This document shows, piece after piece, positions 2,468 through 63,736 of a stretch of 64,000 nucleotides of DNA; within the stretch, counting starts at the first letter, position 1, and each line of letters starts with the position of its first letter. Made by a program: the position numbers and the translations under genes. The DNA comes from an uncultured Gemmatimonadota bacterium (GTDB lineage: Bacteria; JAAXHH01), in NCBI GenBank assembly GCA_951812955.1, contig OX638340.1, forward strand, positions 1,792,001-1,856,000, given 5' to 3'. The notes below the pieces were generated by a model, which worked only from the letters and a program-made list of their open reading frames with translations, made no database searches and was not told the origin of the DNA.

Positions 2468-3322
2468 ATGCTACCCCAGGAGCAGGTTGAATTCTACCAT
2501 GAGAATGGTTACCTGACCGTTGATAAAGTGCTTTCGGACGCCGAGGTCGTGGATCTGCAACGGGTGACCGACGAATTCGTCGAAAAATCCGCCGCTTTCA
2601 CCGAACACACGGACTTGTACGATCTCGAGCCCAATCATACTCCGCACGATCCGAAGGTGCGCCGTTTGAAGAGCCCGATCGAGCACCACGACGTATACAT
2701 GCGCACGATCAAGCACGACGGGATCCTCGACATCGTGGCGCAGTTGGTCGGCGACGGTATTCGAACCAACGGCAACAAGCTGAACATGAAGTCCGCTGAT
2801 TACGGCAGCCCGGTGGAATGGCACCAGGACTGGGCCTTCTACCCCCATACCAACGACGATATCCTGGCCGTGGGCGTCTGCATCGACGAAATGAACGAAG
2901 CGAACGGTGCCCTGCTGGTCATACCCGGTTCGCACAAGGGTCCGACCTACGACCACCACCAGCACGGCCGGTTCTGCGGCGCCGTGACCGATTCGGATTT
3001 CATTCCCGAAAACGTCGTGGCCCTGGAAGTTCCGGCGGGCGGCATCTCGATCCACCACGTGCGGACCCTGCACGGCTCGGCGCCCAACTATTCCGGCGCG
3101 CCCCGACGCCTGCTCCTGTTTCAATACGCTGCCGCCGATGCCTGGCCATTGTCCGGCGCGGGCGACTGGGATGCCTTCAACGGAAACCTGCTCCGGGGAG
3201 AACCGACCAACGAACCGCGCATGGCCGACCTGCCCGTCCGCATGCCCTTGCCCGGGGCTGAACGCGGGGGTTCCATATACGAGAACCAGTCGGTCCTCGA
3301 GAACAAGACCTGGGCCCGGTAG
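2468..3322 (+). CDS. Phytanoyl-CoA dioxygenase (PhyH) family Fe(II)/2-oxoglutarate oxygenase
   Basis: The motif WHQDWAFYPHTNDD...GALLVIPGSHKG (HxD...H facial triad) is present. A GGAGGA RBS lies 5 nt before the ATG at 2468. Confidence 0.7.
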   Translation: MLPQEQVEFYHENGYLTVDKVLSDAEVVDLQRVTDEFVEKSAAFTEHTDLYDLEPNHTPHDPKVRRLKSPIEHHDVYMRTIKHDGILDIVAQLVGDGIRTNGNKLNMKSADYGSPVEWHQDWAFYPHTNDDILAVGVCIDEMNEANGALLVIPGSHKGPTYDHHQHGRFCGAVTDSDFIPENVVALEVPAGGISIHHVRTLHGSAPNYSGAPRRLLLFQYAAADAWPLSGAGDWDAFNGNLLRGEPTNEPRMADLPVRMPLPGAERGGSIYENQSVLENKTWAR

Positions 3323-3365
3323 AACCTGGGCATGGGGTACGCGGCCCAATAAAGGACGCTGAGCG

Positions 3366-3863
3366 GTGAACGACTCGGCCCAAAGTGACGCGGATCACGT
3401 GAAACACACGGATCGCACGGATCGAACCGATCGAGCGGATCGAATGGGCCAAAACGACCAGACCGGTCACCATCATCCCATCTTGTTCTTCGACGGCGTG
3501 TGCGGCCTGTGCAACGGTTTCGTAGATCTGTTACTGAAGGCAGATACCCAGGATCGGTTCAGATTCTCGCCATTACAGGGTGAAACCGCGCATCGCATGC
3601 TGGGGCCGCAGGATCATGCAGGCGGCCCCCATTCCTTCGTTTACCTGGAAAACGACCATATCCACGAGCAGTCTAACGCGGTTTTACTCGCCCTGAGCCG
3701 ATTGGGCGGAGCCTGGCGGCTGCTCGACCTGCTTTACATATTTCCTCGTCCATTTCGGGATTTCGTCTACCGCATCGTTGCGCGAAACCGGTACCGCTGG
3801 TTTGGCAGGCACGACGAGTGCCGCATACCCGCGCCGGAAGAGCGAGAACGGTTTCTGCTGTGA
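3366..3863 (+). CDS. DCC1-like thiol-disulfide oxidoreductase family protein (DUF393)
   Basis: Signature ILFFDGVCGLCNGFV...RFRF...LQ is present. The ORF opens with GTG at 3366; an alternative ATG at 3444 would give a roughly 139-aa product. Confidence 0.55.
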   Translation: MNDSAQSDADHVKHTDRTDRTDRADRMGQNDQTGHHHPILFFDGVCGLCNGFVDLLLKADTQDRFRFSPLQGETAHRMLGPQDHAGGPHSFVYLENDHIHEQSNAVLLALSRLGGAWRLLDLLYIFPRPFRDFVYRIVARNRYRWFGRHDECRIPAPEERERFLL

Positions 3864-3941
3864 CGAGTGGTATAGGTTTTTTAACCGAGAACAGCCGGCT
3901 CGGTCATCACACACCAGGCCATCCTACAAATCTATTTCACC

Positions 3942-4811
3942 ATGACGGCGAGATTCACGTCCGATAACCATCCCTTCATAACGCCCGATCTGGTCAACGC
4001 GCTACCGAGCAAGCCCGCTGACGTCCGTTCTTCGTACGGTCAGGCGCTATCTCAGTTCGGCGAACTGCGCTTACCGAAGGGTGACGGTCCCCATCCTGTG
4101 GCGACCGTCCTGCACGGCGGATGCTGGCTGTCGCTTTATGCCGACCTGCATAACGCGGACGCGCTGGCAGACGCGCTGAGAGACGAGGGCATAGCGACCT
4201 GGAACGTTGAGTACCGATGCGTGGACCAGGACGGCGGTGGATGGCCAGGGACATTTCTCGACGCAGGGCGGGCGACGGACCACCTTCGGACGCTTGCCGC
4301 CGACCACGACCTCGATCTGGACCGTGTGATCACGCTGGGCCACTCGGCGGGCGGTCACCTGGCGCTGTGGACGGCCGCGCGCCACAGGTTGCCGCGAAAC
4401 AGCCCGCTCTGGACCGCCGATCCTTTGCCGCTCCGAGGCGCCGTGGTCCTGGCGGGTCCTGGAGATCTTAAAAGTTTTACGCCCCATGCAGATGCGGAAT
4501 GCCGGCAGGGCGTCGTGTCGGAACTGCTTGGCGGATCGGGCGTATCACTGGACGAGATGGAAGAAAGGTATCTATGCGGATCACCTGCTGAATTGCTGCC
4601 TCTTGGCCTGCGGCAGATCCTGATCAGCGCGGAACACGACTGGGTCGTGCCGCCCGATCTGGGAGAAGCTTACGCGGAGACCGCGCGGGATGCTGGAGAC
4701 GATATCGAACACCTGGTCGTTCCGGACGCCGGTCACCATGAGTTCATGGTTCCGGGTTCTGTGACCTGGCCGGCCGTACTTGGGGCGGTACGGACATTGC
4801 TTGAAACCTGA
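3942..4811 (+). CDS. Alpha/beta hydrolase (esterase/lipase fold-3-like)
   Basis: HGGCW oxyanion motif and GHSAGG nucleophile elbow; 289 aa. Confidence 0.65.
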   Translation: MTARFTSDNHPFITPDLVNALPSKPADVRSSYGQALSQFGELRLPKGDGPHPVATVLHGGCWLSLYADLHNADALADALRDEGIATWNVEYRCVDQDGGGWPGTFLDAGRATDHLRTLAADHDLDLDRVITLGHSAGGHLALWTAARHRLPRNSPLWTADPLPLRGAVVLAGPGDLKSFTPHADAECRQGVVSELLGGSGVSLDEMEERYLCGSPAELLPLGLRQILISAEHDWVVPPDLGEAYAETARDAGDDIEHLVVPDAGHHEFMVPGSVTWPAVLGAVRTLLET

Positions 4812-5015: not shown

Positions 5016-5468
5016 CTACTCATCCAGACTCAGCGTCCAGTTATTCCACTTGCGATCCGGAGATGCGCCCAGGGACCGGTAGAAGTACTCGGCGGCGGTG
5101 TTCCCGGTCATGACCGTCCAAATCACTTCGGCCGCATTCATGGATTTGGCATGCGCTGTGACCGCCTCCACCAAGGCCTTTCCGGCTCCCAGGCTTCGCG
5201 CGGTCTCATCGACATACAGCTCTTTGAGCACGAGCTTGGGCCGCAGGGTGTAGGTCCATTGAATCGGAAAGGTCACTACCATCCCGACAAGATTATCGTC
5301 GTGTTCGGCTACAAACGCGGTGAATAAGCGCTCGTCTCCAAAACCATGCTCGAGAATACTCTCCCGCGTCACGGCGAACTCATCGATGTATTCCTCGTAT
5401 TTCGCCAGACCGATCATGAGTTCGAGCAGTCGGTCGGTATCTTCAGGAACAGCCAGTCTTACGAGCAT
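5016..5468 (-). CDS. GNAT family N-acetyltransferase
   Basis: 150 aa with a typical GNAT core (LVGMVV...ARSLGAGKALVEAV). Confidence 0.65.
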   Translation of the reverse strand: MLVRLAVPEDTDRLLELMIGLAKYEEYIDEFAVTRESILEHGFGDERLFTAFVAEHDDNLVGMVVTFPIQWTYTLRPKLVLKELYVDETARSLGAGKALVEAVTAHAKSMNAAEVIWTVMTGNTAAEYFYRSLGASPDRKWNNWTLSLDE

Positions 5469-5548
5469 TTAGTAGAGTCCGTATTTGAGGTTTAGACCAT
5501 CCGACGCAGCGGGATCATACGCGGGCAGCCGCCAAGTCCATTCGATGA

Positions 5549-6667
5549 TCAATTCGCAGACTCACGCCCCTGATCGGCCAGCACGTCCCGCAGCGTAGTG
5601 AGAAAAGCGTCATTCTCTTCCGGCAGCCCGATGGTTACCCGCATGCCCCGTTCCAGCATAGGGTAACGGCTGACGTCACGGATGAGCACGCCCCGGTCGA
5701 TCAGTCCGTGGAAGATTTCGTCGACCGGCCGTTCCGCCTCGAACAAAACAAAGTTGGCATGGGAGGGATAGGGTCGGATGCCTGGAAGGTTCAGCAGAGC
5801 CTGGAAGACCCGTTGTCTTTCTGATTGGATTATCGCCGCCCGTTCTTCGATCAAAGTCTCCTGGGCGATCAGCTTGCGCGCGGCAATCAGGGAAATGATG
5901 TTGACGTTGTACGGAAGCTCGACCTTCTCGATTTCCCGTGTCAGCGCCTGATCGGCGACCAGGTATCCCAGGCGGAGTCCAGCGGCGCCGAGGGCTTTCG
6001 AAAAGGTGCGGGTAATGACAATGTTCGGATAATCTGAAATCAGTTCGACGCAGGATACGCCGCCGAATTCGTAGTAGGCCTCGTCCACGACGACCAGGCC
6101 ATCAGTTTCCTCCGCGATCCGCGCCGTGTCCGCCGGTGAAATCATGGATCCGGTCGGGTTGTTCGGAGAGCACAGCACGACCAGTCTGACTTCGGGATGG
6201 GCACTTTCTTCCACCAACCGGTCGACATCGAAGCTCATATCGGCCTTGAGGTATACGGTCCGGATATCTGCACCCGCAATCCTGCCCATGAGTGCGTAGA
6301 GCGTAAAGGTCGGCGCCGGCAGAACGACCCGATCACCCGTAGCAATCGTTGCCTGGAAAACTGCCTGGATCAGTTCGTTCGAACCATTGCCGATAAGGAC
6401 GTACCCGGGACCCAGCCCGTGCCGCTTGCCGATGGACTCCTTGACCTCGCCGGGAACGAATCCCGGATACCGACCCCAGTTTGCGGCCAGGGCCTCGTCC
6501 ACGATCTCCCGCTTGAGATCCTCGGGAACGTCGAAGGGGCATTCGTTCTGGTTGAGTTTGACCGGACAGTCGGGCTGGACCAGGGTGTAGCCGGACATGG
6601 CGCGGACCGCCGCCTTCACACTCCGGACAGCGGCATTGCGTGGCTTTTCATCCATCGGAGCGGCCAC
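5549..6667 (-). CDS. hisC: Histidinol-phosphate aminotransferase
   Basis: KLNQNECPF motif and FSKALGAAGLRLGY (PLP lysine). It lies 4 nt downstream of hisG on the same strand. Confidence 0.85.
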   Translation of the reverse strand: MAAPMDEKPRNAAVRSVKAAVRAMSGYTLVQPDCPVKLNQNECPFDVPEDLKREIVDEALAANWGRYPGFVPGEVKESIGKRHGLGPGYVLIGNGSNELIQAVFQATIATGDRVVLPAPTFTLYALMGRIAGADIRTVYLKADMSFDVDRLVEESAHPEVRLVVLCSPNNPTGSMISPADTARIAEETDGLVVVDEAYYEFGGVSCVELISDYPNIVITRTFSKALGAAGLRLGYLVADQALTREIEKVELPYNVNIISLIAARKLIAQETLIEERAAIIQSERQRVFQALLNLPGIRPYPSHANFVLFEAERPVDEIFHGLIDRGVLIRDVSRYPMLERGMRVTIGLPEENDAFLTTLRDVLADQGRESAN

Positions 6668-6671
6668 CCTT

Positions 6672-7541
6672 TTAGTAAATCACCTTGTTGAGCGGGTATT
6701 CCACCAGGCCATGAGCGCCGGCCCGTTTGAGCGCCGGAACCAACTGGCGTATGGTGTGTTCCTCGATCATCACTTCGATGGCGACCCACTCTTCATCGGC
6801 CAGGGGGGACACAGTGGGGTTCTGCAGGGCGGGCAACAGCGCCGTTACCGCGGCCAGATCCGCTCGTCTGACGTTCATTTTCAGGCCGACCATTTCCTCG
6901 GCGAGCATGGCACCCTTGAGCAACAGGGCGATGTTTTCGATCTTGCGCCGCTTGTCCGGGTCTTCCCAGCTCTTCTTGTTCGCTATGAGCCGGTTGGTGG
7001 ATATCAACAACGTGTCGAGGACGCGTAACTTGTTGGCTCTGATCGAACCGCCGGTCTCGGTGATTTCGACAATCGCATCCGCCAGTTCCGGGGCCTTGGC
7101 TTCCGTCGCGCCCCAGGAGAATTCCACTTTCGCGCTAACGCCGTGTTTTTGCAGGTAGCTCTCGGTGATATTGACGACTTCCGTGGCGACCCGCTTGCCT
7201 TCGAGGTCCTGGACACTACGTATATCCGAAGACTCCGGTACGGCCAGCACCCACCGCAGCGGCCGCCGAGTATGCTTGGCATAGACCAGTTCCGCCACCT
7301 CCACCACGTCCGCCCCGGTCTCCACGATCCAGTCCTTGCCTGTAAGACCCGCGTCGAAGACCTCATCCTCGACGTACCGGCCGATCTCCTGGGCCCGGAT
7401 CAACATGATCTCCAGTTCTTCGTCGTCCACCCAGGGTGAGTAGGACCGGCTGCTGACCGTGCAATGAAACCCCGCCTTGCGCATGAGTTCAAAGGTGGAT
7501 TCCTGCAGGCTTCCCTTGGGCAGCGCCAGTTTGATCAGCAT
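6672..7541 (-). CDS. hisG: ATP phosphoribosyltransferase, long form
   Basis: ORF 6672..7643 trimmed to the ATG at 7541 ([12 protein letters not shown], the typical HisG N-terminus). A GAGGAG RBS lies 9 nt upstream. The C-terminal regulatory domain is present, giving 289 aa. Confidence 0.85.
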
Positions 7542-7951
7542 TTTCTTATACTCCTCGTGACTCTTGTAGGGATCGAGGTCTTTTGTCACCTTAACGATTT
7601 TTACAGTGCATTCTCTTTCTGATCTAACTTGATACTCTAGCACACTCGACTAATTACCTTCGAGTTTCCCTCGAAGATCCTACCATCAGATAAACCGCCT
7701 GAAAATAACACGACCCTACAAAATTGTCCAATCCTATTGATAACCGCACCCCGAAGGCTTCGAAGAGCAAAGCAGCACGGCGTCGAGTTTTGTATTGATA
7801 AATCGACTACATAGTGAGTCAGCACCAGTATATGCACCGCGCCAGAGTAGACCAGGCACGGATATTATATCCCTTTCCGTTTAACGGCATTCGTTATATA
7901 TAGTATAGTGATACGTACTTTCGCAGATCGAGAAACCTGGGAGAGCTTACC

Positions 7952-9695: not shown

Positions 9696-10667
9696 TCAAA
9701 GCAATCCAGCGCTACCGAGCCGTGTCCGCAGTCCTGCGATACCGTTCTCTACAAGTTCCGGTCTTCCTTCCTCCACCCCGTAGATAACCTCGTGACAGGA
9801 TGCCATCCAGGTGTAGGTCCGAAGCCTCCGCTCGTACTGTTCGTCCAAAGCTAGCCTGTAGCTGTCTCGAACCCTTTTAACGGCCTCCGTGCCATAAGTG
9901 ACATAGATACCGACGAAATCGATCGCGGGATCGCCGACCGTCGCGTCCTCGAAGTCAATCAGCCCATTCACAGTCACCCCGTCTTCATTCATCAGAATAT
10001 GCTCGCAACCCAGGTCGCAGTGCACCAGGGCGACATCCTTCAGTGTCGCGAGTTCGTAGTCGAGAAACCGGTCGAATCCGCGTTCTACCGCGTTGAGCGT
10101 GCTTTCTTCCGTGTCCCCGTCGGTGGATACAAGTAGTGGTAATACGTTGGTACGGACTTCTTCTCTCAGCGCGGAATAGCGTTGCCGCCACGTATCGACC
10201 GTGGGCTTCACGGCGCAGGCCTTGGCGACCAGCGATGTGGGTATGTCATGCAGCGAGGAAAGTGCCGCCCCTATGGACCCGGCTGTTTCCACGGATTGTT
10301 TATGACCGGGAGATGGTCGAGCAGACAGGGCCCGGCCGGGAATCCGCCGGTACCCCGCATAGGGCTGGCCGTTCCAACATCCTGCATGCTCGAAACGTGG
10401 TACGGCGAAGTCAACCCGGGAGGCAACAATGGGCAGTACCGCCCGCTCTTTTTGAAGGTTCTCAGCGACCACACTGTTCCTGGGAAAACGAAAGATCCAG
10501 CCGGGTTCGACAGCGGAGGACTCGACTTGCTCACCATGGTCATCCGGTTCGACTTCGAATGTCCAGTAAGACCAGCCTCCAGTGATGGGCTGGATTCGAC
10601 CCTGGTTTATGCTGAGATTGACGAGCAGATTTTCAACATCCCGGGTTGTCACAATAGGGTACTGCAA
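9696..10667 (-). CDS. Phosphotransferase enzyme family protein (APH/choline-kinase-like fold)
   Basis: Brenner motif LVHCDLGCEHILM and IDFEDATVGDPAIDF (metal-binding D). Confidence 0.6.
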   Translation of the reverse strand: MQYPIVTTRDVENLLVNLSINQGRIQPITGGWSYWTFEVEPDDHGEQVESSAVEPGWIFRFPRNSVVAENLQKERAVLPIVASRVDFAVPRFEHAGCWNGQPYAGYRRIPGRALSARPSPGHKQSVETAGSIGAALSSLHDIPTSLVAKACAVKPTVDTWRQRYSALREEVRTNVLPLLVSTDGDTEESTLNAVERGFDRFLDYELATLKDVALVHCDLGCEHILMNEDGVTVNGLIDFEDATVGDPAIDFVGIYVTYGTEAVKRVRDSYRLALDEQYERRLRTYTWMASCHEVIYGVEEGRPELVENGIAGLRTRLGSAGLL

Positions 10668-10786
10668 TGATTGATTCTCCTCACAAATGATCAGAGACGT
10701 ACCGGTAACTGTGTCAGTCGTGATCTTTGTGGACTGCGCAACGGACAGCCGCGGATCTCAAGCGATGAAGCGCTCATTCACGTCAG

Positions 10787-12049
10787 CTAGAGTTTGTAAC
10801 AGCCGGCATTGATTTGACGAGTACCGCCTATCGACCCTTCATCCTCTGCACCAGAATCTTCGTTATCAACTTCCTCCGCCGCGTTAACGTCAACTACGCC
10901 CTCATTCACCATCATCCTCGCTTCCACCGCGCCTTTCTGATCCGGGTTGCAACTTATCACGCCCCAGTTGTAAACTCCCGCGAGATGATCATACAGGACC
11001 TGGGCCTCGACATCTTCTTCGATGGTAACGACGCCGGTATTGTACAATGTGGCGGTCCCTTCGAGAAAGTCGAATCGAGACTTCTGGAGCGTAACCGTGG
11101 TTTGCACGACCCACAGCGTCCCATCATAGAACACCACCCTGGTTTTCAGTGTGTCGCATTTTCTGGACAGGACTTCACTCAGGCTATCCGGGCACAGGAC
11201 CGTACCGATGCATATGAGACCGGCGAGGGCTCTGTCCAGTGAATCCTGATCTACTTCCTCGTGTATGGTGACGTTTTCGGTTGCGAAGATGCTCCTGTCC
11301 TTCCATGTCCGTATGTTTGTGGAGTTCAGAGACAGCTCGTGTTCCACGATCACAAAGCCCTCAGGAATCGCCCAGGTCAGCGGTGTGCCGGCCCTGGGAT
11401 CGAACCTGGATGCCAGCGTGGACAGGTTTTTCTCGCAGCAGAAGACTTTTCCCCTGACGTTGAGTGTCTTGATTTTTTGATCGATCAGTTTATCCGGCAC
11501 GGCCTGCACGATCTGCAGATCACCCGTGATGACCATGTCCGAGTCGTTGGCCATCGAAGCAAGGTAGACTTCATCCAGCAGGAGGTCGCCGACTACCAGA
11601 CGGGCGGAAGACCGGTAAGATGAATGACTTCCCGGGTTTTCCGTCAACCTGTTCATGATCGCTCCGGCTACGTGTTCAGGATAGAGGATGCTCCCTGAAT
11701 TGAGGATTCCGAACCACGAACTTTCCACGTCTTCAGCCTTGACATCAGGTTCCAGGATTATGCTGCCCGAGTTCATGATGAATAGCGGGGCTCCTTCGCC
11801 AGAGAGCGCTTCCCGGCCCATGACCTCCCTCGAATGAACGGTCATCAGTCTGACCTCTGTAGGAACTTCGATAACACTTCCCATATTGATGGTAAACATG
11901 GTCATAAGAGGCCTGGTTGCAGCGGATACCAGTACGTTCCCGGCGTTGACCTGCTTGATCCTCGATGCCGTCTGTTCCGTTGTTTCACGCATGTCCAGTG
12001 TACCGCAATTGATGCTGACCGAACGGGGGGTGCTTTTTTCGAGATTCAT
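10787..12049 (-). CDS. Hypothetical repeat-containing protein (N-x-GS-I/V beta-strand repeats), located downstream of the ECF sigma factor
   Basis: 420 aa with reiterated INMGSVIEVP / IMNSGSIILEP / ILNSGSILYPE / INCGTL / INAGCY motifs suggesting a beta-helix or beta-solenoid. No TM segment, acidic C-terminus. It lies 95 nt downstream of the sigma gene on the same strand. Confidence 0.5.
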   Translation of the reverse strand: MNLEKSTPRSVSINCGTLDMRETTEQTASRIKQVNAGNVLVSAATRPLMTMFTINMGSVIEVPTEVRLMTVHSREVMGREALSGEGAPLFIMNSGSIILEPDVKAEDVESSWFGILNSGSILYPEHVAGAIMNRLTENPGSHSSYRSSARLVVGDLLLDEVYLASMANDSDMVITGDLQIVQAVPDKLIDQKIKTLNVRGKVFCCEKNLSTLASRFDPRAGTPLTWAIPEGFVIVEHELSLNSTNIRTWKDRSIFATENVTIHEEVDQDSLDRALAGLICIGTVLCPDSLSEVLSRKCDTLKTRVVFYDGTLWVVQTTVTLQKSRFDFLEGTATLYNTGVVTIEEDVEAQVLYDHLAGVYNWGVISCNPDQKGAVEARMMVNEGVVDVNAAEEVDNEDSGAEDEGSIGGTRQINAGCYKL

Positions 12050-12144
12050 GGTTTTTCTCCTGTCTTATGTAGTGCATCCAAAGTCGAGACTGGGTGATTG
12101 AGATCGTAAGACTATACATCCTGGTCCTATACTGGTTTATGTGA

Positions 12145-12654: not shown

Positions 12655-12804
12655 GCCTTGATCCGATCATTGTTTACCGGGATCTCGAATGAGCACCTGT
12701 TCATATGTAGGACGAATTAAGTAGGAGGGCTGTTTGAAAAAAGTCAGGGCACAAATACAATCTGGCATGTTGATATAGCATGGCTCCGGGGCTGGGATGC
12801 TATT

Positions 12805-13098: not shown

Positions 13099-13120
13099 AC
13101 TGAGTTGCGAGGTGTCCCCT

Positions 13121-13435: not shown

Positions 13436-13548
13436 ACGACAGACGGGAAGTGGCGCATATGATTCGCTTGTCGGCGACGAAGGTATTGTAGTCTCCTCGT
13501 CTACAAACACCTTCTCGATCGGCATATTGAAAACTCTGGAGATCTTCA

Positions 13549-14259: not shown

Positions 14260-14302
14260 ATGACTGCACCCTCACTGAATGACTGTCCCCTCTTGGTATG
14301 AT

Positions 14303-18248: not shown

Positions 18249-18309
18249 TTAGTGATTCTGCCCCGAATGGCTGTGCAACGTATGTCGTACTTCCGGACTG
18301 AGTCAATCA

Positions 18310-47660: not shown

Positions 47661-49862
<2,202 letters not shown>

Positions 49863-54007: not shown

Positions 54008-54458
54008 GAGCGCCCGCGACTGCGTCTTCTGTCGCATAATCCAGGGCGAACTGGACTCTGCGATCATTTACGAGGATGACTCTACCCTGGCATTCCTCAA
54101 TCTGCGCCAGAGCAACGAAGGACATGTCCTGGTGGTCCCCAAACGCCATTTCGAACAGATCTACGACCTTGACGAGGACACGGCCTGCGCGCTCGCCGGC
54201 ACGGTCTGTAAAGTGTCCCGAGCAGTGCGTAGAGTATACGCACCGGAAGGGTTATCGATCTGGCAATCCAATGGTCCGGCGGCGTTTCAGGAAGTGCCGC
54301 ATGTCCACTGGCATGTCTTCCCACGGTACACTGACGATGGGCTCTTGGTCGTATATCCCAGGGATATCGCTGACCGTGCACGTCTGATAAAGTCGGTGGA
54401 CTCCCTAAAGACGATTGCAGGACCCTTGATAGAGGCGCTTGAGGAAGACATCGAATAG
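54000..54458 (+). CDS. HIT (histidine triad) family protein
   Basis: Trimmed to the ATG at 54000 (AGGAAGGAG RBS). HVHWHVFPR triad. Confidence 0.7.
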   Translation: MTESARDCVFCRIIQGELDSAIIYEDDSTLAFLNLRQSNEGHVLVVPKRHFEQIYDLDEDTACALAGTVCKVSRAVRRVYAPEGLSIWQSNGPAAFQEVPHVHWHVFPRYTDDGLLVVYPRDIADRARLIKSVDSLKTIAGPLIEALEEDIE

Positions 54459-54521
54459 GAGTATCCGCATCAGAACGGTGCCAGTTCGAACGGCATCTGA
54501 GGGACCACCTGGTAAATACCT

Positions 54522-55400
54522 ATGCCGTACGCATCCATTAACGGATTCAAGATGTTCTACGAAGTTCAAGGGGAAGGCGAGACCGTCGTATTCATACACG
54601 GCGGATTCCCTTCCTTAGATATGCACCTCCGCGCACAATCGATTGGCAAGTGGACCTGGGAGATGGATTTCACTTCGAGTCACCGTTTCATGACGTACGA
54701 TCGCCGAGGCTGCTGGCGGTCCTCTTGTCCTGAAGGTGGGTATGACCTTGAGAATCAAGTACGGGACCTGAATGAGTTGCTGGAACTTCTTGAAGTGGAA
54801 GAAGCGCATGTGATCGGTTCGTCTGCGGGTGGTCCCATCGCAATGCTGTTCGCGTCCATCTACCCGAATAGAGTCAATACGCTTGTACTGGCTGGTACCG
54901 CTGCAGATCTCTGGCCGAAGTACGACCCGGTTACCCGTATCGTAGAAGAACAGTTTGAATGCCTGAAAAAACAAGGCGCGAACGTAATCTGGAAGAACCG
55001 GCCGTCTGGAGTTGAGCTTTCATTTGACGTACTGTGGGAACGGGAGGAGATGAAGGAGCGGGGAGTTCTGGCAGAATACGAAGATCGCATAGCGCAGTCT
55101 CTGAAGAAGTGCAGTGTGCAAGACCGTGTGCAATGGTACGAAATCCAGCTTCGGGCCATCGGTGCTTACCTTGACAGGGATCTGACGAAGGAATGTGCTC
55201 GGATATCGGTTCCCACCCTTGTGGTTCACGGAGCGAATGACAGAGAAGTGCCCGTAGATTGGGGCCGAGATCTCTCCACGAAGATTCCAGGCGCCACATT
55301 CAGGATGTATAAGAGTGAATCACACGGCCTCGTCCACCGGTATGGCGTCGTTCGGCAGGATCTCATCGCGTTTTACGACCAGAATGGAACCACCTCATGA
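54522..55400 (+). CDS. Alpha/beta hydrolase
   Basis: HGGFPS and GSSAGG nucleophile elbow. Confidence 0.7.
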   Translation: MPYASINGFKMFYEVQGEGETVVFIHGGFPSLDMHLRAQSIGKWTWEMDFTSSHRFMTYDRRGCWRSSCPEGGYDLENQVRDLNELLELLEVEEAHVIGSSAGGPIAMLFASIYPNRVNTLVLAGTAADLWPKYDPVTRIVEEQFECLKKQGANVIWKNRPSGVELSFDVLWEREEMKERGVLAEYEDRIAQSLKKCSVQDRVQWYEIQLRAIGAYLDRDLTKECARISVPTLVVHGANDREVPVDWGRDLSTKIPGATFRMYKSESHGLVHRYGVVRQDLIAFYDQNGTTS

Positions 55401-56635
55401 AAATCACCGAGATCGAGGTACACGAAATCACCCTCGAATACGAGGACTGGATCGCGTACCAGCTGAACCATTTCTACGGACCGGCAAAGCGGACCGTCTA
55501 CGTCGCCCACACCGACGACGGGCTCATCGGCCTGGGCGAAGGGCACGATACGGAGCCGGAAGAAGTGATCGACCAGTACGTGGGCACGAACCCCTTCGAA
55601 TGGATTGGAGACGAAACCTCCCTCGCGCTGGGCACGGCGATGTACGACCTGATGGGCAAGGCAGCAGGCGTACCGGTGTACAAGCTTTTCGGACAGAAGG
55701 TCCGTTCCTGGGTGCCGGTGGGAAGCTGGACAGTATCTACGCATCCGGACCGCATGGCCGAAGCGGTGCGTAAATACGCAGCCCAGGGCTACACCTGGAT
55801 GAAATACCACCTTTCGCCCTTCGAGAATGTCATCGACCAGACCGAGGCGATGCAGGAGGTGGCGCCTGAAGGTTTCCGGATCCACTACGACTTCACAATG
55901 CACGGCACCGACGACCACATGCCCGAACTCCTGGACAAACTGGAGCAATTCCCGGTAGCGGGATGCTTCGAGGATCCGCTACCTCCGGGCGATATCCAGG
56001 GTTACATCGAATTGCGGAAGCGGTCCCGGTTGCCCGTCGTGCTGCACCATTTTCCAACGAATGCGACGTACGAAGTGTTCATGAAGCCCGCCGATGCGTA
56101 CATGCTGGGACATCAACTGATCGGGGAATCGGTACGGCGAGCCGGCCTGTTCGCCGCGGACAACAGCCCCTTCATGCTCCAGAACGTGGGCGGGAACATC
56201 ACCCGGGCCATGACCTCCCACATGATGGCGGCCTTCCCCTCGGCGAACTTCCACTTCGTCAGCACGACGGAGACCTGGAAATCCGACGTGGTCGAGGAAC
56301 GGTTGGAACCGGTCAACGGTTTCGTGCGGGTACCGGAAGCGCCGGGGTTGGGCGTCACGCTGGATCGGGATGAACTGGAACAGCTGAAACAAATCGAAGT
56401 GCCTCGCCAGGAGAAATGGATCATCAGGTCGCGATTCGAGAACGGCGCACGCATGTACAACATCGCCGATCCGGAGGATTCCATTTTCATGGTGCGGCCG
56501 GACCGGCGGCGCGGGATGGTGCCCATGCGATACGACGCACCGATCACCACCGACTACTGGGACGACAACGGCACGGAGGCATACCGGGAGATGTTCGCCC
56601 GGATCGAACGGGAAGGCGTCGTGCTCGAGAGATGA
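55397..56635 (+). CDS. Enolase superfamily enzyme (mandelate racemase / muconate lactonizing enzyme-like)
   Basis: The N-terminal capping domain (KITEIEVHEITLEY...GLGEG) and a barrel domain with acidic metal ligands are present. A 4-nt ATGA overlap with the upstream hydrolase gene suggests coupling. Confidence 0.65.
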   Translation: MKITEIEVHEITLEYEDWIAYQLNHFYGPAKRTVYVAHTDDGLIGLGEGHDTEPEEVIDQYVGTNPFEWIGDETSLALGTAMYDLMGKAAGVPVYKLFGQKVRSWVPVGSWTVSTHPDRMAEAVRKYAAQGYTWMKYHLSPFENVIDQTEAMQEVAPEGFRIHYDFTMHGTDDHMPELLDKLEQFPVAGCFEDPLPPGDIQGYIELRKRSRLPVVLHHFPTNATYEVFMKPADAYMLGHQLIGESVRRAGLFAADNSPFMLQNVGGNITRAMTSHMMAAFPSANFHFVSTTETWKSDVVEERLEPVNGFVRVPEAPGLGVTLDRDELEQLKQIEVPRQEKWIIRSRFENGARMYNIADPEDSIFMVRPDRRRGMVPMRYDAPITTDYWDDNGTEAYREMFARIEREGVVLER

Positions 56636-60386: not shown

Positions 60387-62783
60387 ATGTTCCAGAATTA
60401 CTTCGTCGTGGCCATACGCAATCTCCTCCGGCATCCCGCCTACTCGTTAATCAACATCGCCGGCCTCGCCATCGGTTTGACCGCGTGCATCCTGATCCTG
60501 TTGTACGTCCAGGACGAGCTCAGCTACGATCGTCATCACGAGAAAGCCAATCGCATTTACCGGATCGTCGATGATATTGAAAGCGGTGGGCAGACCATAG
60601 AGACTGCGGGTACGCCCCCTGGATGGGCTGCCGCGCTGAAGCGGGACTACCCGGAAGTCGAGCAGTTCGTCCGCATGAGGGGCACGATGTCCGCATGGCT
60701 GATTACCCATGGTGAATCCCGGTTTTACGAAAAGAAAGTCATCTGGGCGGAGCCAACCCTGTTCGAGTTGTTTTCTATCCCTCTGGTTTCCGGCAATCCC
60801 CGGACCGCACTGAGAGATCCAAAATCGATGGTGGTTTCGGAGGAAATGGCGTTCAAGTACTTCGGCGAGGAAGAAGCATTGGGAAAGATCATCAACGTGG
60901 ATCAAAGCTGGGACTTCGTCGTGACCGGCGTCATGCGGAACATGCCCGCCAATTCCCACATGCGTGCGGACATGTTCGCTTCCTTCAGAGAATTCAGAGC
61001 CATGGGTCTGGATCAGGACTGGGAAAACCATGACAACAACTACACCTATCTTCTGTTGCGTGAAGGCGCCTCTCCCGAAGCACTCGAAGCGCGGTTGCCG
61101 TCCTTCCTGGAACGCTACGCTGGGGACATGTACAGCGAAGCGGGCGTCACCTTGAACCCGTCGCTGCAATCTCTGGTAGATATCCATCTGCATTCGCACC
61201 GGGAGAGCGAACTCGAGCCCAATGGAGATATCCGTTACGTGGCGCTCTTCATGATCATCTCGTTCCTGATTCCGCTGATCGCGTGCATCAACTTCGTCAA
61301 CATGGCTACGGCACGGGCGGCCATGCGCGCAAGGGAAGTAGGCGTACGCAAGGTGATGGGCGCAGATCGACCCCAGTTGATCAGGCAATTCCTGGGAGAA
61401 GCAGTCTTGATCGCGGCATTCGCCATGATCCTTGCGGTGGTCCTGGTACATCTCGCCCTGCCTTCTGTCAATGCGCTCGCGGGCAAGCAACTGGCGTTCC
61501 CCCTGTCGAATGGCTTTGTATTGGCCGTATTGGCCGGTGGCACATTGGCCACAGGATTAGCCGCTGGCTGCTATCCGGCATTCTATCTGTCGCGTTTCCT
61601 GCCTACCGAAGTTTTGAAGGGCAACCCAATATCGGGAACACAAGGATTGGGGTTGCGCAAAGTGCTGGTCGTTACTCAGTTCGCCATGTCCATATTCCTG
61701 CTCGTCAGCACGGCCATCATCTTCGACCAACTCGAGTACATCCAGACCAAACGCCTCGGATTCGATAAGGAACAGGTAATGGTCGTGCCCATAACGGGAT
61801 TCCTGCAGCGGCAGAATACGCCCGTACTGAAAGATCGATTGTCCCAGTTACCGGGCGTTATGAGCATGGCGACGTCAACCGCCGTACCGGGCATGCGGGT
61901 GTTACCGATTATGCCGGTCCGTCCGGAGGGGATGCGGCCCGAGGATCACCTGATGATGGCCACACTGCAGGTGGACGATCATTTCCTGGACGTCATGGAG
62001 ATCGGACTGGTGACCGGGCGGAACTTTTCAACAGACTGGGGAACGGATTCGACCACGGGGTTCCTGCTGAACGAGACTGCAGTGCGGTACCTGGGGTGGG
62101 GAGCGCCTGCCGACGCGATTGGCAAGCGATTCGAGTGGATCCCATTCGGCGGGAAGAAAGGGGACGTAATCGGTGTGGTAGAGGATTTTCACCTGCGAAC
62201 GATTCACGAGGAGATCGAACCGGTCGTTATACTAACGAGTTCGTACCAGGAATATGTCCTTATCCGTATCGCACCGGACGGGATCCCCGAGACCGTCTCG
62301 CGCATTGAGAAAGTATGGCGGGACGTCGATCCCAGGTACCCGCTTGAATACACGTTCCTGGAAGAGGATTTTGACCGGCTGTACCGTGCCGACCGCCAGC
62401 TTGGCGAGGTCTTCGCGTCCTTTGCGTTTCTCGCGGTCTTCGTGGCCTGCCTGGGCCTCCTGGGGCTGTCTTCGTTCTCGATACAGCAGCGTACGAAAGA
62501 GATCGGCATTCGCAAGGTACTCGGCTCTACGGTTTCAGGAATCGTGGTATTGCTGTCCAGGGATTTCATGAAGTACGTCCTGCTGGCCAATGTCATCGCC
62601 TGGCCGCTGGCGTACTACGCCATGACGATTTGGCTACAAAATTACGCCTATTCATCGGAGATCAGGTTGGCGTGGTTTGTCTCGGGCGGCGTCACCGCGC
62701 TGGTCATCGCCTGGCTGACGATCGGCGCCCACGCGATGGCCGCTTCGCGGCGAAATCCGGTTAACGCCTTGAGGCAGGGGTGA
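60387..62783 (+). CDS. ABC transporter permease, FtsX/MacB-like (two FtsX domains)
   Basis: N-terminus MFQNYFVVAIRNLLRHPAYSLINIAGLAIGL, two 4-TM FtsX modules and a large periplasmic domain; 798 aa. Confidence 0.8.
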   Translation: MFQNYFVVAIRNLLRHPAYSLINIAGLAIGLTACILILLYVQDELSYDRHHEKANRIYRIVDDIESGGQTIETAGTPPGWAAALKRDYPEVEQFVRMRGTMSAWLITHGESRFYEKKVIWAEPTLFELFSIPLVSGNPRTALRDPKSMVVSEEMAFKYFGEEEALGKIINVDQSWDFVVTGVMRNMPANSHMRADMFASFREFRAMGLDQDWENHDNNYTYLLLREGASPEALEARLPSFLERYAGDMYSEAGVTLNPSLQSLVDIHLHSHRESELEPNGDIRYVALFMIISFLIPLIACINFVNMATARAAMRAREVGVRKVMGADRPQLIRQFLGEAVLIAAFAMILAVVLVHLALPSVNALAGKQLAFPLSNGFVLAVLAGGTLATGLAAGCYPAFYLSRFLPTEVLKGNPISGTQGLGLRKVLVVTQFAMSIFLLVSTAIIFDQLEYIQTKRLGFDKEQVMVVPITGFLQRQNTPVLKDRLSQLPGVMSMATSTAVPGMRVLPIMPVRPEGMRPEDHLMMATLQVDDHFLDVMEIGLVTGRNFSTDWGTDSTTGFLLNETAVRYLGWGAPADAIGKRFEWIPFGGKKGDVIGVVEDFHLRTIHEEIEPVVILTSSYQEYVLIRIAPDGIPETVSRIEKVWRDVDPRYPLEYTFLEEDFDRLYRADRQLGEVFASFAFLAVFVACLGLLGLSSFSIQQRTKEIGIRKVLGSTVSGIVVLLSRDFMKYVLLANVIAWPLAYYAMTIWLQNYAYSSEIRLAWFVSGGVTALVIAWLTIGAHAMAASRRNPVNALRQG

Positions 62784-62941
62784 CAGAGTGGTTGCGGCAC
62801 TGGTTCGCATGGTAGACTATGGATGCTCGATTGCCGTGCAAATCGACATAGTCTAAGTGCAACGGAGTGGGGCATGAATTGCCAATTGCCAAGTCCCGAA
62901 TGGCTCTGTCAGAAGTACGGGATTGAGTTTATGGAACAGCC

Positions 62942-63736
62942 ATGTTGACCGCCCATCAGAGATCCGAATTCGATGAGCATGGCTGGGTTCGCGTGCCCGG
63001 CATGATTCCGATCGAGGACGTCCGGCAGGTGCTGGATCGCATCTGGGACGATCTGGAGCAAAGGTGCGGGATCCCGCGCGATGATCCTGAGACCTGGCCT
63101 GTGACCAGGCCCAAGGGGTTCAATACGTTAATGCGGTCCGGAGCCTTCGAACCCACGTGCAGCCAAGCCGTGCAGGATGCGATTGACGATCTCCTGGGAC
63201 CTGGCCAATGGGAGAAACCATCCCCCTGGGGAGCACTCCTCCTTACCTTTCCTTCTAGCGAGCCGTGGGTTCTGCCCAATCATTCATGGCACATGGACCT
63301 GCTCAAAGCCGTGCATGACGGGGCCGAAACAACCCCGGGCGTACAGGTCTTCGCGATGCTGGAACCGCTGACCGCACAGGGCGGTGCAACGATTGGCCTT
63401 GCCGGGTCCCATCGGCTCGTTCGCCACCTTGCTCGGCAACCGGAGCTAATCGGTGAGGGCCGGTCTAAAGATATCAGTAAAGCAGTCAGGAGAGCGGCGC
63501 CAAATCTACGAGATCTGTGGTCCCGCGACCCTGGCGGTGACCGCGAGGAGCGTTACCTTATGAAACCAGTCGATGTTTTCGGCATCCCGGTGCAGGCCGT
63601 CGAATTCACCGGCGATCCAGGCGATGTGATCTTTATGCATCCGTGGATTTTGCATACAGCTTCTGCCAACTGCGGAAAGCGGCCTCGCATCGTGATTACA
63701 GAACGCAATTACAGAATCGAAAGAGAAGAGGCATAG
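62942..63736 (+). CDS. Phytanoyl-CoA dioxygenase (PhyH)-like protein
   Basis: VLPNHSWHMD...GSHRL...FMHPWILHTASANCGKRPR. More divergent than the other five paralogs. Confidence 0.55.
   Translation: MLTAHQRSEFDEHGWVRVPGMIPIEDVRQVLDRIWDDLEQRCGIPRDDPETWPVTRPKGFNTLMRSGAFEPTCSQAVQDAIDDLLGPGQWEKPSPWGALLLTFPSSEPWVLPNHSWHMDLLKAVHDGAETTPGVQVFAMLEPLTAQGGATIGLAGSHRLVRHLARQPELIGEGRSKDISKAVRRAAPNLRDLWSRDPGGDREERYLMKPVDVFGIPVQAVEFTGDPGDVIFMHPWILHTASANCGKRPRIVITERNYRIEREEA

Follow-up and report, generated by a model that had tools for sequence, protein, structure and literature searches.

Expansion of the PhyH family of oxygenases is already known from sponge symbionts, and in the Poribacteria more than 1.9% of genes belong to this family (Kamke et al. 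2014, PMC3909097). The stretch of DNA analysed here (64,000 nucleotides, hereafter the window) appears to be another case. Its host is apparently an uncultured, marine, sponge-associated lineage of the Latescibacterota; MAG names and the literature make the lineage look sponge- or invertebrate-associated, and its genomes are probably about 3.3–3.9 Mb in size. As in the Poribacteria, many mutually divergent PhyH genes are found in an uncultured, sponge-linked marine lineage, and their best homologues lie mostly within that lineage or in other sponge symbionts, PhyH1 being about 66% identical to poribacterial proteins. The differences are that the phylum here is, by record title, Latescibacterota/Gemmatimonadetes, and that the density refers to this one window. 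A literature search found no report of PhyH enrichment for this lineage. What the present data add is the positional conservation of the PhyH genes across species and their embedding among housekeeping genes.

Characterized PhyH oxygenases (the set compared comprised EctD, PtlH, PrhA/AusE/SptF, KanJ, GriE, EvdO2, human PHYH/PHYHD1 and FJS, a bacterial 2'-O-methyl-nucleoside demethylase of the PhyH family; PMC12709175) share with the window proteins an HxD...H triad, an Arg that binds 2-oxoglutarate (2OG), a double-stranded beta-helix fold and a length of 250–300 aa. However, the window proteins are remote from them (E values of 1e-6 to 1e-18), identity to tested FJS-like proteins, including a poribacterial one, is 28% or less, and none of the six reaches an NCBIfam equivalog cut-off, the margin being wide. 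No substrate is transferable from the characterized enzymes.

Two further patterns bear comparison. Ancient paralogue expansions of catabolic enzymes are reportedly present in SAR202 Chloroflexota, in work ascribed to Landry et al. 2017, the old oxidative-enzyme paralogues being thought to widen the range of organic substrates. This is the same concept as that of the original prediction for the window, although enzyme families and organism differ. Bacterial pangenomes, moreover, show a core/flexible gene-pool pattern in which a conserved backbone carries flexible insertion slots. The window likewise has a fixed backbone with a few intervals holding small, lower-GC, species-variable genes, but its slots lack the usual tRNA and integrase landmarks, and a single enzyme family makes up an unusually large share of its backbone. 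We consider it probable that the window is stable, vertically inherited core chromosome, in which six old PhyH subfamilies occupy fixed positions and reflect enrichment of the family at the level of lineage or lifestyle.

Gene content of the window

The original prediction described six divergent members of one PhyH family set among many small-molecule enzymes, and this description is upheld. All six ORFs score above 22 bits, the gathering cut-off of the Pfam PhyH model PF05721 (Table 1), and have an intact iron/2OG motif: in 6/6 the distal His lies 78–121 residues after HxD and the Arg motif begins 7–10 residues beyond that His. For the two weakest members, PhyH2 and PhyH6, the motif residues do not vary across the family alignments (H114/D116/H218/R227 among 26 homologues and H117/D119/H238/R249, respectively), and AlphaFold models (pLDDT 94.2 and 90.5) match solved PhyH-type dioxygenases with a Foldseek probability of 1.00, at 12–18% identity. 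In hhalign, the family profile of PhyH6 matches that of PhyH1 with 95% probability. The genes are indeed mutually divergent, since the best pair, PhyH1 and PhyH5, shares 27% identity and for most pairs BLASTP finds hardly any similarity. The starts first proposed at 2468, 19464 and 34295 fit orthologue lengths or alignment extents, and the true start of PhyH5 is probably Met-12, at about 46509.

Pfam also confirmed the interleaved enzymes, namely four HAD, two APH and two HIT proteins, NUDIX, IMPase, metallophosphoesterase, SAM-methyltransferase (MTase), GNAT and two alpha/beta hydrolases. The second APH scores 180.7 bits against the NCBIfam APH(3') model (cut-off 205), and the match of the ERG4-like protein is 4quv, a delta14-sterol reductase from bacteria (E = 5e-34). 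Citrate synthase (CS) scores 347 bits (cut-off 332). In the window leuB is frameshifted near 31896–31900, the gene being intact in relatives; with the frameshift repaired it scores 423 bits (cut-off 353).

Table 1. Features of the window, with positions in nucleotides and the supporting domain evidence
Feature	Position	Strand	Evidence
Two tandem GH172/DUF2961 genes	76–2390	+	Pfam DUF2961, 262 and 265 bits
PhyH1	2456/2468–3322	+	PF05721, 111 bits
DCC1-like thiol-disulfide oxidoreductase and alpha/beta hydrolase (3942)	3366–4811	+	Pfam
GNAT (5016–5468, variable), hisC-like aminotransferase, hisG	5016–7643	−	Pfam
HAD (four)	8974, 13549, 18735, 20362		Pfam
APH (two)	9696 (−), 22342		Pfam
Sulfatase, NUDIX, HAD3 (same direction as PhyH2)	16740–19385	+	Pfam
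NUDIX	18310		Pfam
PhyH2	19404/19464–20303	+	PF05721, 39 bits
HAD4, metallophosphoesterase, APH(3')-like kinase, SAM-MTase, IMPase/CysQ-like, HIT1 (co-directional)	20362–25452	+	Pfam
Metallophosphoesterase	21611		Pfam
SAM-MTase	23202		Pfam
IMPase	24020		Pfam
HIT (two)	24970, 53970		Pfam
MerR-fused CS paralogue (−), leuB (+), CS (+)	30186–33933	−, +, +	Pfam
PhyH3	34217/34295–35185	+	PF05721, 54 bits
Short-chain dehydrogenase (SDR)	35220–36350	+	Pfam adh_short, 84 bits
PhyH4	36496–37257	+	PF05721, 79 bits
Strain-specific insertion: NERD-domain 691-aa ORF and 93-aa ORF	37258–40029	−	ORF GC 0.43, 0.48
Ceramidase-like (−), ERG4/ERG24 sterol-reductase homologue (+), 770-aa UshA/5'-nucleotidase-like (+)	40030–45713	−, +, +	Pfam
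PhyH5	45772–46542	−	PF05721, 118 bits
DUF4377 (−), katG catalase-peroxidase (+)	46637–49862	−, +	Pfam
HIT2, alpha/beta hydrolase 2, enolase-superfamily MR_MLE	53970–56635	+	Pfam
Alpha/beta hydrolases (two)	3942, 54522		Pfam
MacB_PCD/FtsX duplicated permease, PhyH6, start of second permease	60387–64000	+	Pfam
PhyH6	62942–63736	+	PF05721, 31 bits, C-terminal part only

Conservation of gene order

Synteny was compared in 14 species-representative genomes (L001–L013 and L019) and five ENA-assembly contigs (L035–L038 and L126, the last belonging to the chromosome of L019), the relatives' record titles being Gemmatimonadetes or Candidatus Latescibacterota. A PhyH orthologue is present at 39 of the 42 covered positions (PhyH1 2/2, PhyH2 11/12, PhyH3 9/9, PhyH4 7/8, PhyH5 7/8, PhyH6 3/3), all three absences falling in L009, and the order and orientation of the PhyH genes are identical in the relatives. 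Positional orthologues share about 75–93% amino acid identity, on a par with the neighbouring housekeeping genes. Three runs are kept: GH172-PhyH1-DCC1-alpha/beta hydrolase-hisC-hisG-GrpB-HAD1-APH1; sulfatase-HAD3-PhyH2-APH2-IMPase-MerR-CS-leuB-CS-PhyH3-SDR-PhyH4-ceramidase-like-PhyH5-DUF4377-KatG; and M19-FG-GAP-HIT2-MR_MLE-515aa-TPR-PhyH6-permease. Relatives thus carry the same genes in conserved order, which is the first half of what the original prediction had named as counting against it. Among these relatives, whose citrate synthases are 69–87% identical, the conserved order could partly reflect slow rearrangement and not selection.

Among the neighbours, citrate synthase is present in 14/14 loci, its MerR-fused paralogue in 12/13, sulfatase in 6/6, HAD3 in 11/12, APH2 in 12/13, IMPase in 11/13, the ceramidase-like gene in 6/8, DUF4377 in 7/8 and KatG in 5/5. 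HIT2 and MR_MLE are each found in 3/4 loci, in the same order in L037, L038 and L126, and the variable second alpha/beta hydrolase in 1/4. At the other end, the GH172 pair is also found 5' of PhyH1 in L035, L036 and L048; hisC and hisG, as well as the order PhyH1-DCC1-alpha/beta hydrolase, are retained in L035, L036, L046, L048 and L049, and GNAT is missing from L036. The PhyH genes lie in separate small transcription units amid hisG/hisC, leuB, citrate synthase and katG.

The comparison also shows a few insertion slots on this backbone, where small genes of lower GC content occur in some species and are missing from others: NUDIX is present in 2/8 loci, HAD4 in 5/12, metallophosphoesterase in 1/12, MTase in 2/13, HIT1 in 1/13, the ERG4-like gene in 4/8 and the 5'-nucleotidase-like gene in 2/8. 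A clear recent insertion, the NERD pair, is missing from 8/8 related loci; its GC content compares with a mean of 0.58 for conserved genes, it has no PADLOC match, and in L001, which lacks it, the ceramidase-like gene begins 23 nt after PhyH4. These features, the presence of several small, lower-GC genes in 1–5 of 12–13 relatives and the dense set of accessory-type enzymes would suit a hypervariable or horizontally acquired island that included the PhyH genes and differed between close relatives. We regard such an island as highly improbable. Variable-slot genes do have a lower GC content than conserved genes (0.54 vs 0.58; P = 6e-4), but the composition of the PhyH genes is that of the conserved genes (GC3 0.73 vs 0.69; P = 0.26); the region includes core biosynthetic genes, neither tRNA genes nor Rfam elements were found in the window, and the Pfam scan of its ORFs revealed no integrase or transposase domains. 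The original term, hypervariable accessory region, therefore suits a subset of the small enzymes in fixed variable slots and is refuted for the PhyH genes by their occupancy and conserved order.

PhyH density and the origin of the paralogues

The window holds six PhyH genes among about 57, a density of 0.94 per 10 kb. In other phyla, 20 loci anchored on citrate synthase contained none in 324 kb, and the flanks of PhyH1 orthologues in metagenome contigs contained 0.31 per 10 kb over 677 kb, about one-third of the density in the window (Poisson P = 0.049 for at least five extra in 63 kb). The binomial probability of at least six in 58 genes is 8e-4 at the poribacterial 1.9% and 2e-9 at 0.2%. On these figures the density is above chance for bacteria generally but only modestly above that of PhyH-rich genomes. 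The low probability at the poribacterial rate and the excess over the flanks both weigh against the favoured reading, in which the count mirrors enrichment at the level of lineage or lifestyle. Another Latescibacterota MAG contig carries five PhyH genes in 12.2 kb, and three other PhyH-anchored loci have two each within about 13 kb.

The notion of a lineage-specific paralogue expansion was borne out in so far as both this window and another Latescibacterota contig show a clear excess of the family, and PhyH5 and PhyH6 belong to narrow subfamilies. It fails as regards recent local expansion: since the six share no more than 27% identity, they represent ancient subfamilies, and since PhyH1 and PhyH2 are closer to proteins of other phyla (63–77% identity for PhyH1, in Poribacteria, Planctomycetota and Caldilineaceae; 50–67% for PhyH2, in Verrucomicrobia and other phyla), old subfamilies have accumulated without local duplication.

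Change over deep time is apparent in the more distant L009 and L046, which show the gene order of the window without most of the interleaved blocks. L009 reads sulfatase-CS-PhyH3 (frameshifted)-KatG-M19-FG-GAP-515aa-permease; L046 reads PhyH1-DCC1-alpha/beta hydrolase-hisC-hisG-MerR-CS-PhyH3-FG-GAP within about 8 kb. Given this compact backbone, blocks including PhyH2, PhyH4 and PhyH5 have been gained or lost over deep time; the pattern itself is plain and allows either direction. One possible, though rather unlikely, explanation is gain: a compact ancestor would have received blocks at the base of the clade (PhyH2, PhyH4, PhyH5 and conserved small enzymes), perhaps in adaptation to a new, host-associated niche, and the window would be an old accessory region that is now fixed. 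In keeping with this, the HAD3-PhyH2...IMPase and SDR-PhyH4...PhyH5-DUF4377 blocks are both missing from L009 and L046 with flanking order and orientation kept, PhyH5 and PhyH6 come from narrow subfamilies, and today's variable slots fall in the same intervals. However, L009 also lacks MerR-CS and leuB, the MerR-CS/CS adjacency exists in other phyla (L020, L025, L027 and L029), and PhyH3 is frameshifted in L009, all of which point to loss there; L046, with a GC content of 40%, may be a streamlined genome, and the composition of PhyH2, PhyH4 and PhyH5 is that of resident genes.

Individual PhyH genes and their partners

Under the favoured reading of a stable core chromosome, and judging from the chemistry of the family, each PhyH protein would most likely be an independent soluble enzyme, binding Fe(II) through the HxD...H triad and 2OG through the downstream Arg, and would carry out O2-driven hydroxylation, oxidative demethylation or desaturation of its own small-molecule substrate. 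The high local count would then represent lineage- or lifestyle-level enrichment, comparable with that in sponge-associated Poribacteria, and would stem neither from one pathway nor from a mobile island or recent duplication.

Alternatively, the PhyH enzymes might act in series with the phosphatases, kinases, methyltransferase and acetyltransferase on one class of compound, in a catabolic island or a biosynthetic cluster for, for example, aminoglycoside-, inositol- or terpenoid-like scaffolds. Long same-direction runs with short gaps (16.7–25.5 kb and 31.9–37.3 kb), the grouping of an APH(3')-like kinase with IMPase and MTase, the SDR between PhyH3 and PhyH4, and the activity of the nearest solved relatives of these two on terpenoids or kanamycin are consistent with such a cluster. 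We nevertheless think it improbable, as the region is broken up by hisG/C, leuB, gltA and katG and changes strand at least 13 times, nothing in the Pfam scan corresponds to a core enzyme of the PKS, NRPS, terpene cyclase or sugar-nucleotide type, and MTase, metallophosphoesterase, HIT1, NUDIX and HAD4 are individually dispensable between species. In addition, likeness to characterized enzymes is remote, and no neighbour of PhyH1 or PhyH2 homologues in other phyla is related to those in the window. On a smaller scale, PhyH3-SDR-PhyH4, HAD3-PhyH2 and PhyH6-permease are tight, clade-conserved arrangements that could be true functional modules.

PhyH1 (284 aa from 2468; H123/D125/H206 and an Arg motif at 216, in the numbering of the 288-aa ORF) has orthologues of 89–97% identity at the same position in L035 and L036. 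By sequence it is a predicted Fe(II)/2OG dioxygenase, and its subfamily is widespread and strongly conserved; among solved structures EvdO2 and EctD are best, both remote. Its order with DCC1 and the alpha/beta hydrolase was not seen in the poribacterial locus or in the other distant contigs inspected. PhyH2, always immediately preceded by HAD3 in this clade, has no match among PDB sequences, and Foldseek places its AF2 model with PrhA, FtmOx1 and AsqJ (TM 0.60–0.65).

PhyH3, 3' of citrate synthase, has PtlH as its best solved relative (E = 1.9e-14), its score with the NCBIfam PtlH model being 69 bits (cut-off 550); the orthologue in L046 is 63% identical. The SDR sits between PhyH3 and PhyH4 in 8/9 loci, with gaps of 34 and 145 nt, respectively, and all three on the same strand, possibly as a three-gene unit. 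PhyH4 averages 87% identity to its orthologues (7/8 loci), and it is remotely similar to the solved enzymes PrhA, SptF and KanJ (E about 1e-6). PhyH5, downstream of the DUF4377 gene, averages 89% (7/8 loci) and belongs to a narrow subfamily, with 35 representatives at E <= 1e-30 as against 7190 at E <= 1e-3 among 1.84 billion cluster representatives. Among the solved proteins remotely related to it are PHYHD1 and SyrB2, but because its HxD is intact it is not a halogenase.

PhyH6 is lineage-restricted, with 66 homologues in 5.8 billion proteins, and has a helical insertion; Foldseek matches of its AF2 model are GriE, PrhA and human PHYH. It is flanked by two MacB/FtsX-type permease genes of about 800 aa, and the pairing, with tandem permease paralogues after PhyH6, is kept in L037, L038 and L126. 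In L126 a seventh, distinct PhyH gene lies about 9 kb past PhyH6.

PhyH-family proteins of the window

The assignment of six genes (PhyH1 to PhyH6) to the PhyH family is borne out by scores of 31–118 bits on the Pfam model PF05721, against a gathering cut-off of 22. All six proteins contain the HxD motif, the distal His and an Arg motif starting 7–10 residues past that His. Homologues were collected for PhyH2 and PhyH6, the two weakest Pfam matches; H114, D116, H218 and R227 are invariant in 26 relatives of PhyH2, as are H117, D119, H238 and R249 in the 66 relatives of PhyH6 found among 5.8 billion proteins, and the triad and Arg motif residues of PhyH1 are invariant across its homologues. The family profiles of PhyH6 and PhyH1 match each other with 95% probability, and the alignment keeps their motifs in register. 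AF2 models of PhyH6 (pLDDT 90.5) and PhyH2 (pLDDT 94.2) match GriE, PrhA, SptF, human PHYH, FtmOx1 and AsqJ (probability 1.00, TM 0.5–0.65), which puts the predicted PhyH-type double-stranded beta-helix fold in two of the six; PhyH1, PhyH3, PhyH4 and PhyH5 match solved PhyH-type chains by sequence, at a remote level. Presumably all six are catalytically competent.

The original prediction described the six as mutually divergent, and indeed they are at most 27% identical pairwise, most pairs being barely detectable by BLASTP. PhyH1 shares 63–77% identity with proteins of Poribacteria, Planctomycetota and Caldilineaceae and of many metagenomes, PhyH2 shares 50–67% with proteins of Verrucomicrobia and others, and PhyH3 has a 63% identical orthologue in a distant contig. 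The PhyH5 subfamily is narrow (35 cluster representatives at E <= 1e-30 versus 7190 at E <= 1e-3, of 1.84 billion), as is that of PhyH6. Judged from these sequence comparisons, the six are old, separate subfamilies gathered on one stretch of chromosome, with no recent local expansion. Of the proposed paralogue expansion, the over-representation of the family here stands, but recent local duplication does not, given identities of this order and the closer similarity to proteins of other phyla.

The window has a GC content of about 57%, is about 86% coding and contains about 57 genes, their content being taken from Pfam scans that covered essentially all long ORFs. The small enzymes said to be interleaved with the PhyH genes are real: four HAD proteins, two APH-fold kinases, two HIT proteins, a NUDIX hydrolase, an IMPase/CysQ-like phosphatase, a metallophosphoesterase, a SAM methyltransferase and a GNAT protein, with two alpha/beta hydrolases (abH) also among the PhyH genes. 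Further genes encode two GH172/DUF2961 proteins, a sulfatase, a DCC1-like oxidoreductase, an ECF sigma factor, HisG, a HisC-like aminotransferase, a citrate-synthase paralogue fused to MerR (MerR-CS), LeuB, citrate synthase (CS), KatG, an M19 dipeptidase, an FG-GAP protein, an enolase-superfamily protein, a sterol-reductase homologue and MacB/FtsX-type permeases.

Features of the window, with presence given as the number of related loci containing the gene out of those covering its position
Feature	Position	Strand	Basis	Presence
PhyH1	2468-3322	+	PF05721, 111 bits	2/2
GNAT	5016-5468	-	Pfam	1/2
DUF3830, Amdase/EutA-like, acetoacetate-decarboxylase-family run	14303-16588	-	Upstream of sulfatase	
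PhyH2	19464-20303	+	PF05721, 39 bits	11/12
APH2, APH(3')-like phosphotransferase	22342-23145	+	NCBIfam APH(3') equivalog, 180.7 bits (cut-off 205)	12/13
MerR/HTH_17-fused citrate-synthase paralogue	30186-31409	-		
leuB	31707-32785	+	TIGR00169, 423 bits (cut-off 353) after frame repair	
Citrate synthase	32818-33933	+	NCBIfam, 347 bits (cut-off 332)	
PhyH3	34295-35185	+	PF05721, 54 bits	9/9
PhyH4	36496-37257	+	PF05721, 79 bits	7/8
NERD insert	37258-40029	-	691-aa NERD-domain ORF and 93-aa ORF; ORF GC 0.43 and 0.48	0/8
ERG4/ERG24-family membrane protein (ERG4-like)	41797-42936	+	Pfam, 125 bits; bacterial delta14-sterol reductase 4quv, E = 5e-34	4/8
PhyH5	45772-46542	-	PF05721, 118 bits	7/8
Permease-PhyH6-permease	60387-64000	+		
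PhyH6	62942-63736	+	PF05721, 31 bits	3/3
NUDIX				2/8
HAD4				5/12
Metallophosphoesterase				1/12
MTase				2/13
HIT1				1/13
5'-Nucleotidase-like				2/8
abH2				1/4

Gene order in related genomes

A one-genome-per-species scan with the citrate synthase of the window as query returned 14 close loci (69–87% identity), titled 'Gemmatimonadetes bacterium' (APA_bin_41, IRC1_bin_16, SB0665_bin_8), 'Candidatus Latescibacterota bacterium' or 'bacterium', several of them on contigs or chromosomes of 2.5–3.9 Mb. The ends of the window were covered by contigs reached through PhyH1 and PhyH6 homologues, among them the closest contig (L035), which is 92–95% identical to the window at the DNA level. When all window proteins were compared with the 14 loci by tblastn, order and orientation were the same in the relatives. 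With variable genes in parentheses, the central order reads sulfatase-(NUDIX)-HAD3-PhyH2-(HAD4)-(metallophosphoesterase)-APH2-(MTase)-IMPase-(HIT1/unknowns)-MerR-CS-leuB-CS and continues PhyH3-SDR-PhyH4-ceramidase-like-(ERG4-like)-(5'-nucleotidase-like)-PhyH5-DUF4377-KatG. The left end reads topoisomerase-lactamase_B-GH172-PhyH1-DCC1-abH-(GNAT)-hisC-hisG-GrpB-HAD1-APH1, and the right end M19-FG-GAP-unknown-HIT2-(abH2)-MR_MLE-515aa-(CN hydrolase)-TPR-(permease)-PhyH6-permease.

The region had been suspected of being a hypervariable island, and a synteny comparison with relatives had been proposed. That comparison finds the PhyH genes in conserved order, with 39 of the 42 covered positions filled and with typical composition (GC3 of 0.73 versus 0.69 for conserved genes, P = 0.26), which refutes an island as far as these genes are concerned. 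The mean identities of their orthologues (75–93%) may be set beside those of citrate synthase (80%), HisG (91%) and KatG (88%), and positional conservation at the level of histidine, leucine and TCA genes argues that the PhyH set represents core functions of the lineage and not dispensable cargo. In the window, scans found no tRNA gene and no Rfam element, and Pfam found no integrase or transposase domain in the scanned ORFs.

What does hold of the suggested hypervariability is confined to small genes of lower GC in fixed slots (Table), to which three unknown or Calx-fn3 ORFs may be added; the PhyH genes and the backbone do not share in it. The GC content of flexible genes is 0.54 versus 0.58 for conserved genes (P = 6e-4). 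Only the 2.8-kb NERD insert has the character of a genomic island, and single small genes have it in part. The insert separates PhyH4 from the ceramidase-like gene and is missing from all eight loci that cover the position, the flanking genes being 23 nt apart in one of them (L001); PADLOC gave no match for the NERD ORF or four unknown ORFs. APH2, kept in all but one of 13 related loci, is thus a resident gene, not an acquired resistance cassette. For genome scanning, the lesson is that 'tailoring/detox' genes can be densely packed outside any island.

Two more distant relatives have a compact form of the segment. In L009 the order is DUF3830-Amdase-sulfatase-CS-PhyH3-KatG-M19-FG-GAP-515aa-permease, the PhyH3 orthologue (L009 11108-12044) being split into two overlapping ORFs by a frameshift or as a pseudogene. 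In L046 (a 528-kb contig of 40% GC) PhyH1-DCC1-abH-hisC-hisG-MerR-CS-PhyH3-FG-GAP occupies about 8 kb (9992-18088), genes that are spread over about 51 kb of the window. As both keep the backbone order in compact form, the PhyH2, PhyH4 and PhyH5 blocks must have entered at the root of the window's clade or else have disappeared from L009 and L046. Gain, which could make the segment a clade-specific accretion zone marking a shift to host association, would account for an absence common to L009 and L046; however, L009 also lacks MerR-CS and leuB and its PhyH3 is decaying, which suggests loss there.

Density of PhyH genes

The window contains six PhyH genes among about 57, or 0.94 per 10 kb. As the stretches of relatives covered were of 21 kb or less, it was compared with flank-based and anchored-locus backgrounds: 20 citrate-synthase-anchored loci from other phyla have no PhyH gene in 324 kb, and 80 metagenome loci anchored on PhyH1 orthologues contain, besides the anchor, 21 PhyH genes over 677 kb of flank (0.31 per 10 kb), a density at which the five extra genes of the window would have P = 0.049. 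In Poribacteria, 1.9% of genes have been reported to be PhyH (PMC3909097); at such a frequency the binomial P for the six is 8e-4. By these backgrounds the window is dense in PhyH genes, but not beyond the range of PhyH-rich lineages. Segments rich in PhyH genes are a common sight in organisms like this one. A contig from another Candidatus Latescibacterota MAG (L044; GCA_036343635.1, JAYYVF010000023.1, 886-12209) contains 13 genes in 12.2 kb, five of them of the PhyH family, far above the density of the window, three other PhyH-anchored loci have two PhyH genes within about 13 kb, and L126, on the same chromosome as one of the citrate-synthase-anchored relatives, has a seventh, distinct PhyH gene about 9 kb past PhyH6. 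We infer a lineage-wide enrichment in PhyH genes.

In L044 one of the PhyH proteins has HEAT repeats fused to it, and its genes have a sulfatase gene alongside. In six metagenome contigs (L051, L053, L055, L057, L058 and L068) a PhyH1 orthologue (58–65% identity) is directly followed by a distant second PhyH gene; the arrangement resembles a conserved tandem pair and is missing from the window's lineage.

Functional units and candidate substrates

Our working interpretation, and the most likely one, is that the six genes encode independent Fe(II)/2OG hydroxylases, each in a separate small unit, and that these units have become fixed in the core chromosome of a lineage enriched for the family overall, with flexible slots for small hydrolases interspersed among them. 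Independence of function among the six, and a link to a host-associated lifestyle, would be parts of this interpretation. Several pairings are kept within the clade (HAD3-PhyH2, PhyH3-SDR-PhyH4, DUF4377-PhyH5, PhyH1-DCC1-abH and PhyH6-permease) and are candidates for small functional units; those of PhyH1 and PhyH2 are not kept outside the lineage, and the neighbourhoods of PhyH1 and PhyH2 homologues in distant phyla revealed no conserved operon partners, the neighbours being unrelated to those in the window. A biosynthetic or catabolic cluster was rejected, as Pfam and NCBIfam found no core scaffold-forming or pathway-defining enzyme and the tailoring-type genes come and go between species independently of one another.

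PhyH3-SDR-PhyH4 may form a mini-module. A scan for promoter and terminator consensus sequences around PhyH3 to PhyH5 gave counts no higher than in shuffled sequence. The ERG4-like gene adjoins the conserved ceramidase-like gene near this trio, and as a sterol-reductase homologue of what is putatively a sponge symbiont it may deserve attention in its own right. We consider it improbable that the run from PhyH3-SDR-PhyH4 through the ceramidase-like gene and the delta14-sterol-reductase homologue to PhyH5 is a host-lipid module, or that the whole segment is an accretion zone. Such a module, if real, would act on sterols, terpenoids or sphingolipids of the invertebrate host, and its two or three PhyH hydroxylases would work with a dehydrogenase and a sterol reductase in remodelling isoprenoid lipids from the sponge.

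In the window and in three contigs (L037, L038 and L126) PhyH6 is always followed by at least one duplicated MacB_PCD/FtsX permease of about 800 aa. The PhyH6 of the window is also preceded by such a permease, and in L126 three stand in tandem after an MFS gene. In L038 a second PhyH6-like fragment precedes another permease copy, beside a transposase, which suggests duplication of the PhyH6-permease cassette.

None of the six proteins reached the cut-off of an NCBIfam equivalog for ectoine hydroxylase, methylphosphonate hydroxylase, PtlH or halogenase. Scores on the ectoine hydroxylase EctD/ThpD model (TIGR02408, cut-off 336.5) were 52.7 bits for PhyH1, 33.1 for PhyH4 and 54.2 for PhyH5, and those on the PhnY-type methylphosphonate hydroxylase model (NF052437, cut-off 500) were 38.8 bits for PhyH1 and 30.4 for PhyH5; Pfam found no HD-domain gene in the window that might supply the HD-phosphohydrolase (PhnZ) partner of the PhnY type. 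In Fe(II)/2OG halogenases the triad carboxylate is swapped for Ala or Gly (HxA/G). All six proteins keep HxD, and PhyH5 scored 63 bits on the SyrB2/CytC3-type model (TIGR01762, cut-off 226). Orthology to the 2'-O-methyl-nucleoside demethylases of the FJS/PHYHD1 type (PMC12709175) was rejected, as the best identities were 23–28%, and other PhyH members are just as close; the comparison covered four FJS-related enzymes tested in that report (Poribacteria, Acidisoma, Sphingomonas and Fadolivirus), and such an activity may still occur among the six. The Iso_dh gene beside citrate synthase was considered as an isocitrate dehydrogenase feeding 2-oxoglutarate to the adjoining PhyH enzymes, and was rejected in that role, the gene being leuB.

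Bin names, and literature placing the Latescibacterota class UBA2968 among sponge symbionts, suggest that the lineage is associated with sponges. PhyH expansion in sponge symbionts was reported in 2014 for Poribacteria (PMC3909097), the only report on PhyH in Latescibacterota or sponge MAGs that we found, and the present case adds that the PhyH genes belong to the core and keep their positions. Few enzyme families of sponge-associated bacteria are as expanded, and as poorly understood, as the PhyH-family oxygenases, and the genes described here offer orthology-anchored targets for substrate discovery, with PhyH1 broad, PhyH2 intermediate and PhyH5 and PhyH6 lineage-restricted in distribution.

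Other features of the window

A 1-nt frameshift in the A-run 'agcaaagtgac', near 31896-31900, breaks leuB and leaves its first 64 codons in a separate frame; the gene is intact in 10 related loci, in a single frame of about 357 aa, and the break in the window represents an assembly error or else a pseudogene specific to the strain. The leuB gene lies between MerR-CS, in which the MerR/HTH_17 part is an N-terminal DNA-binding domain, and the canonical citrate synthase, the latter two being on opposite strands. The two citrate synthase genes are directly adjacent in four contigs from other phyla (L020, L025, L027 and L029), and the pair also occurs in contigs titled Deltaproteobacteria and in unclassified bacterial contigs (42–46% identity). 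The Amdase/EutA-like gene reached 99 bits on the EutA model for ectoine utilisation (cut-off 318), and the DUF3830-Amdase-acetoacetate-decarboxylase-family run to which it belongs is partly kept in three relatives (L009–L011).
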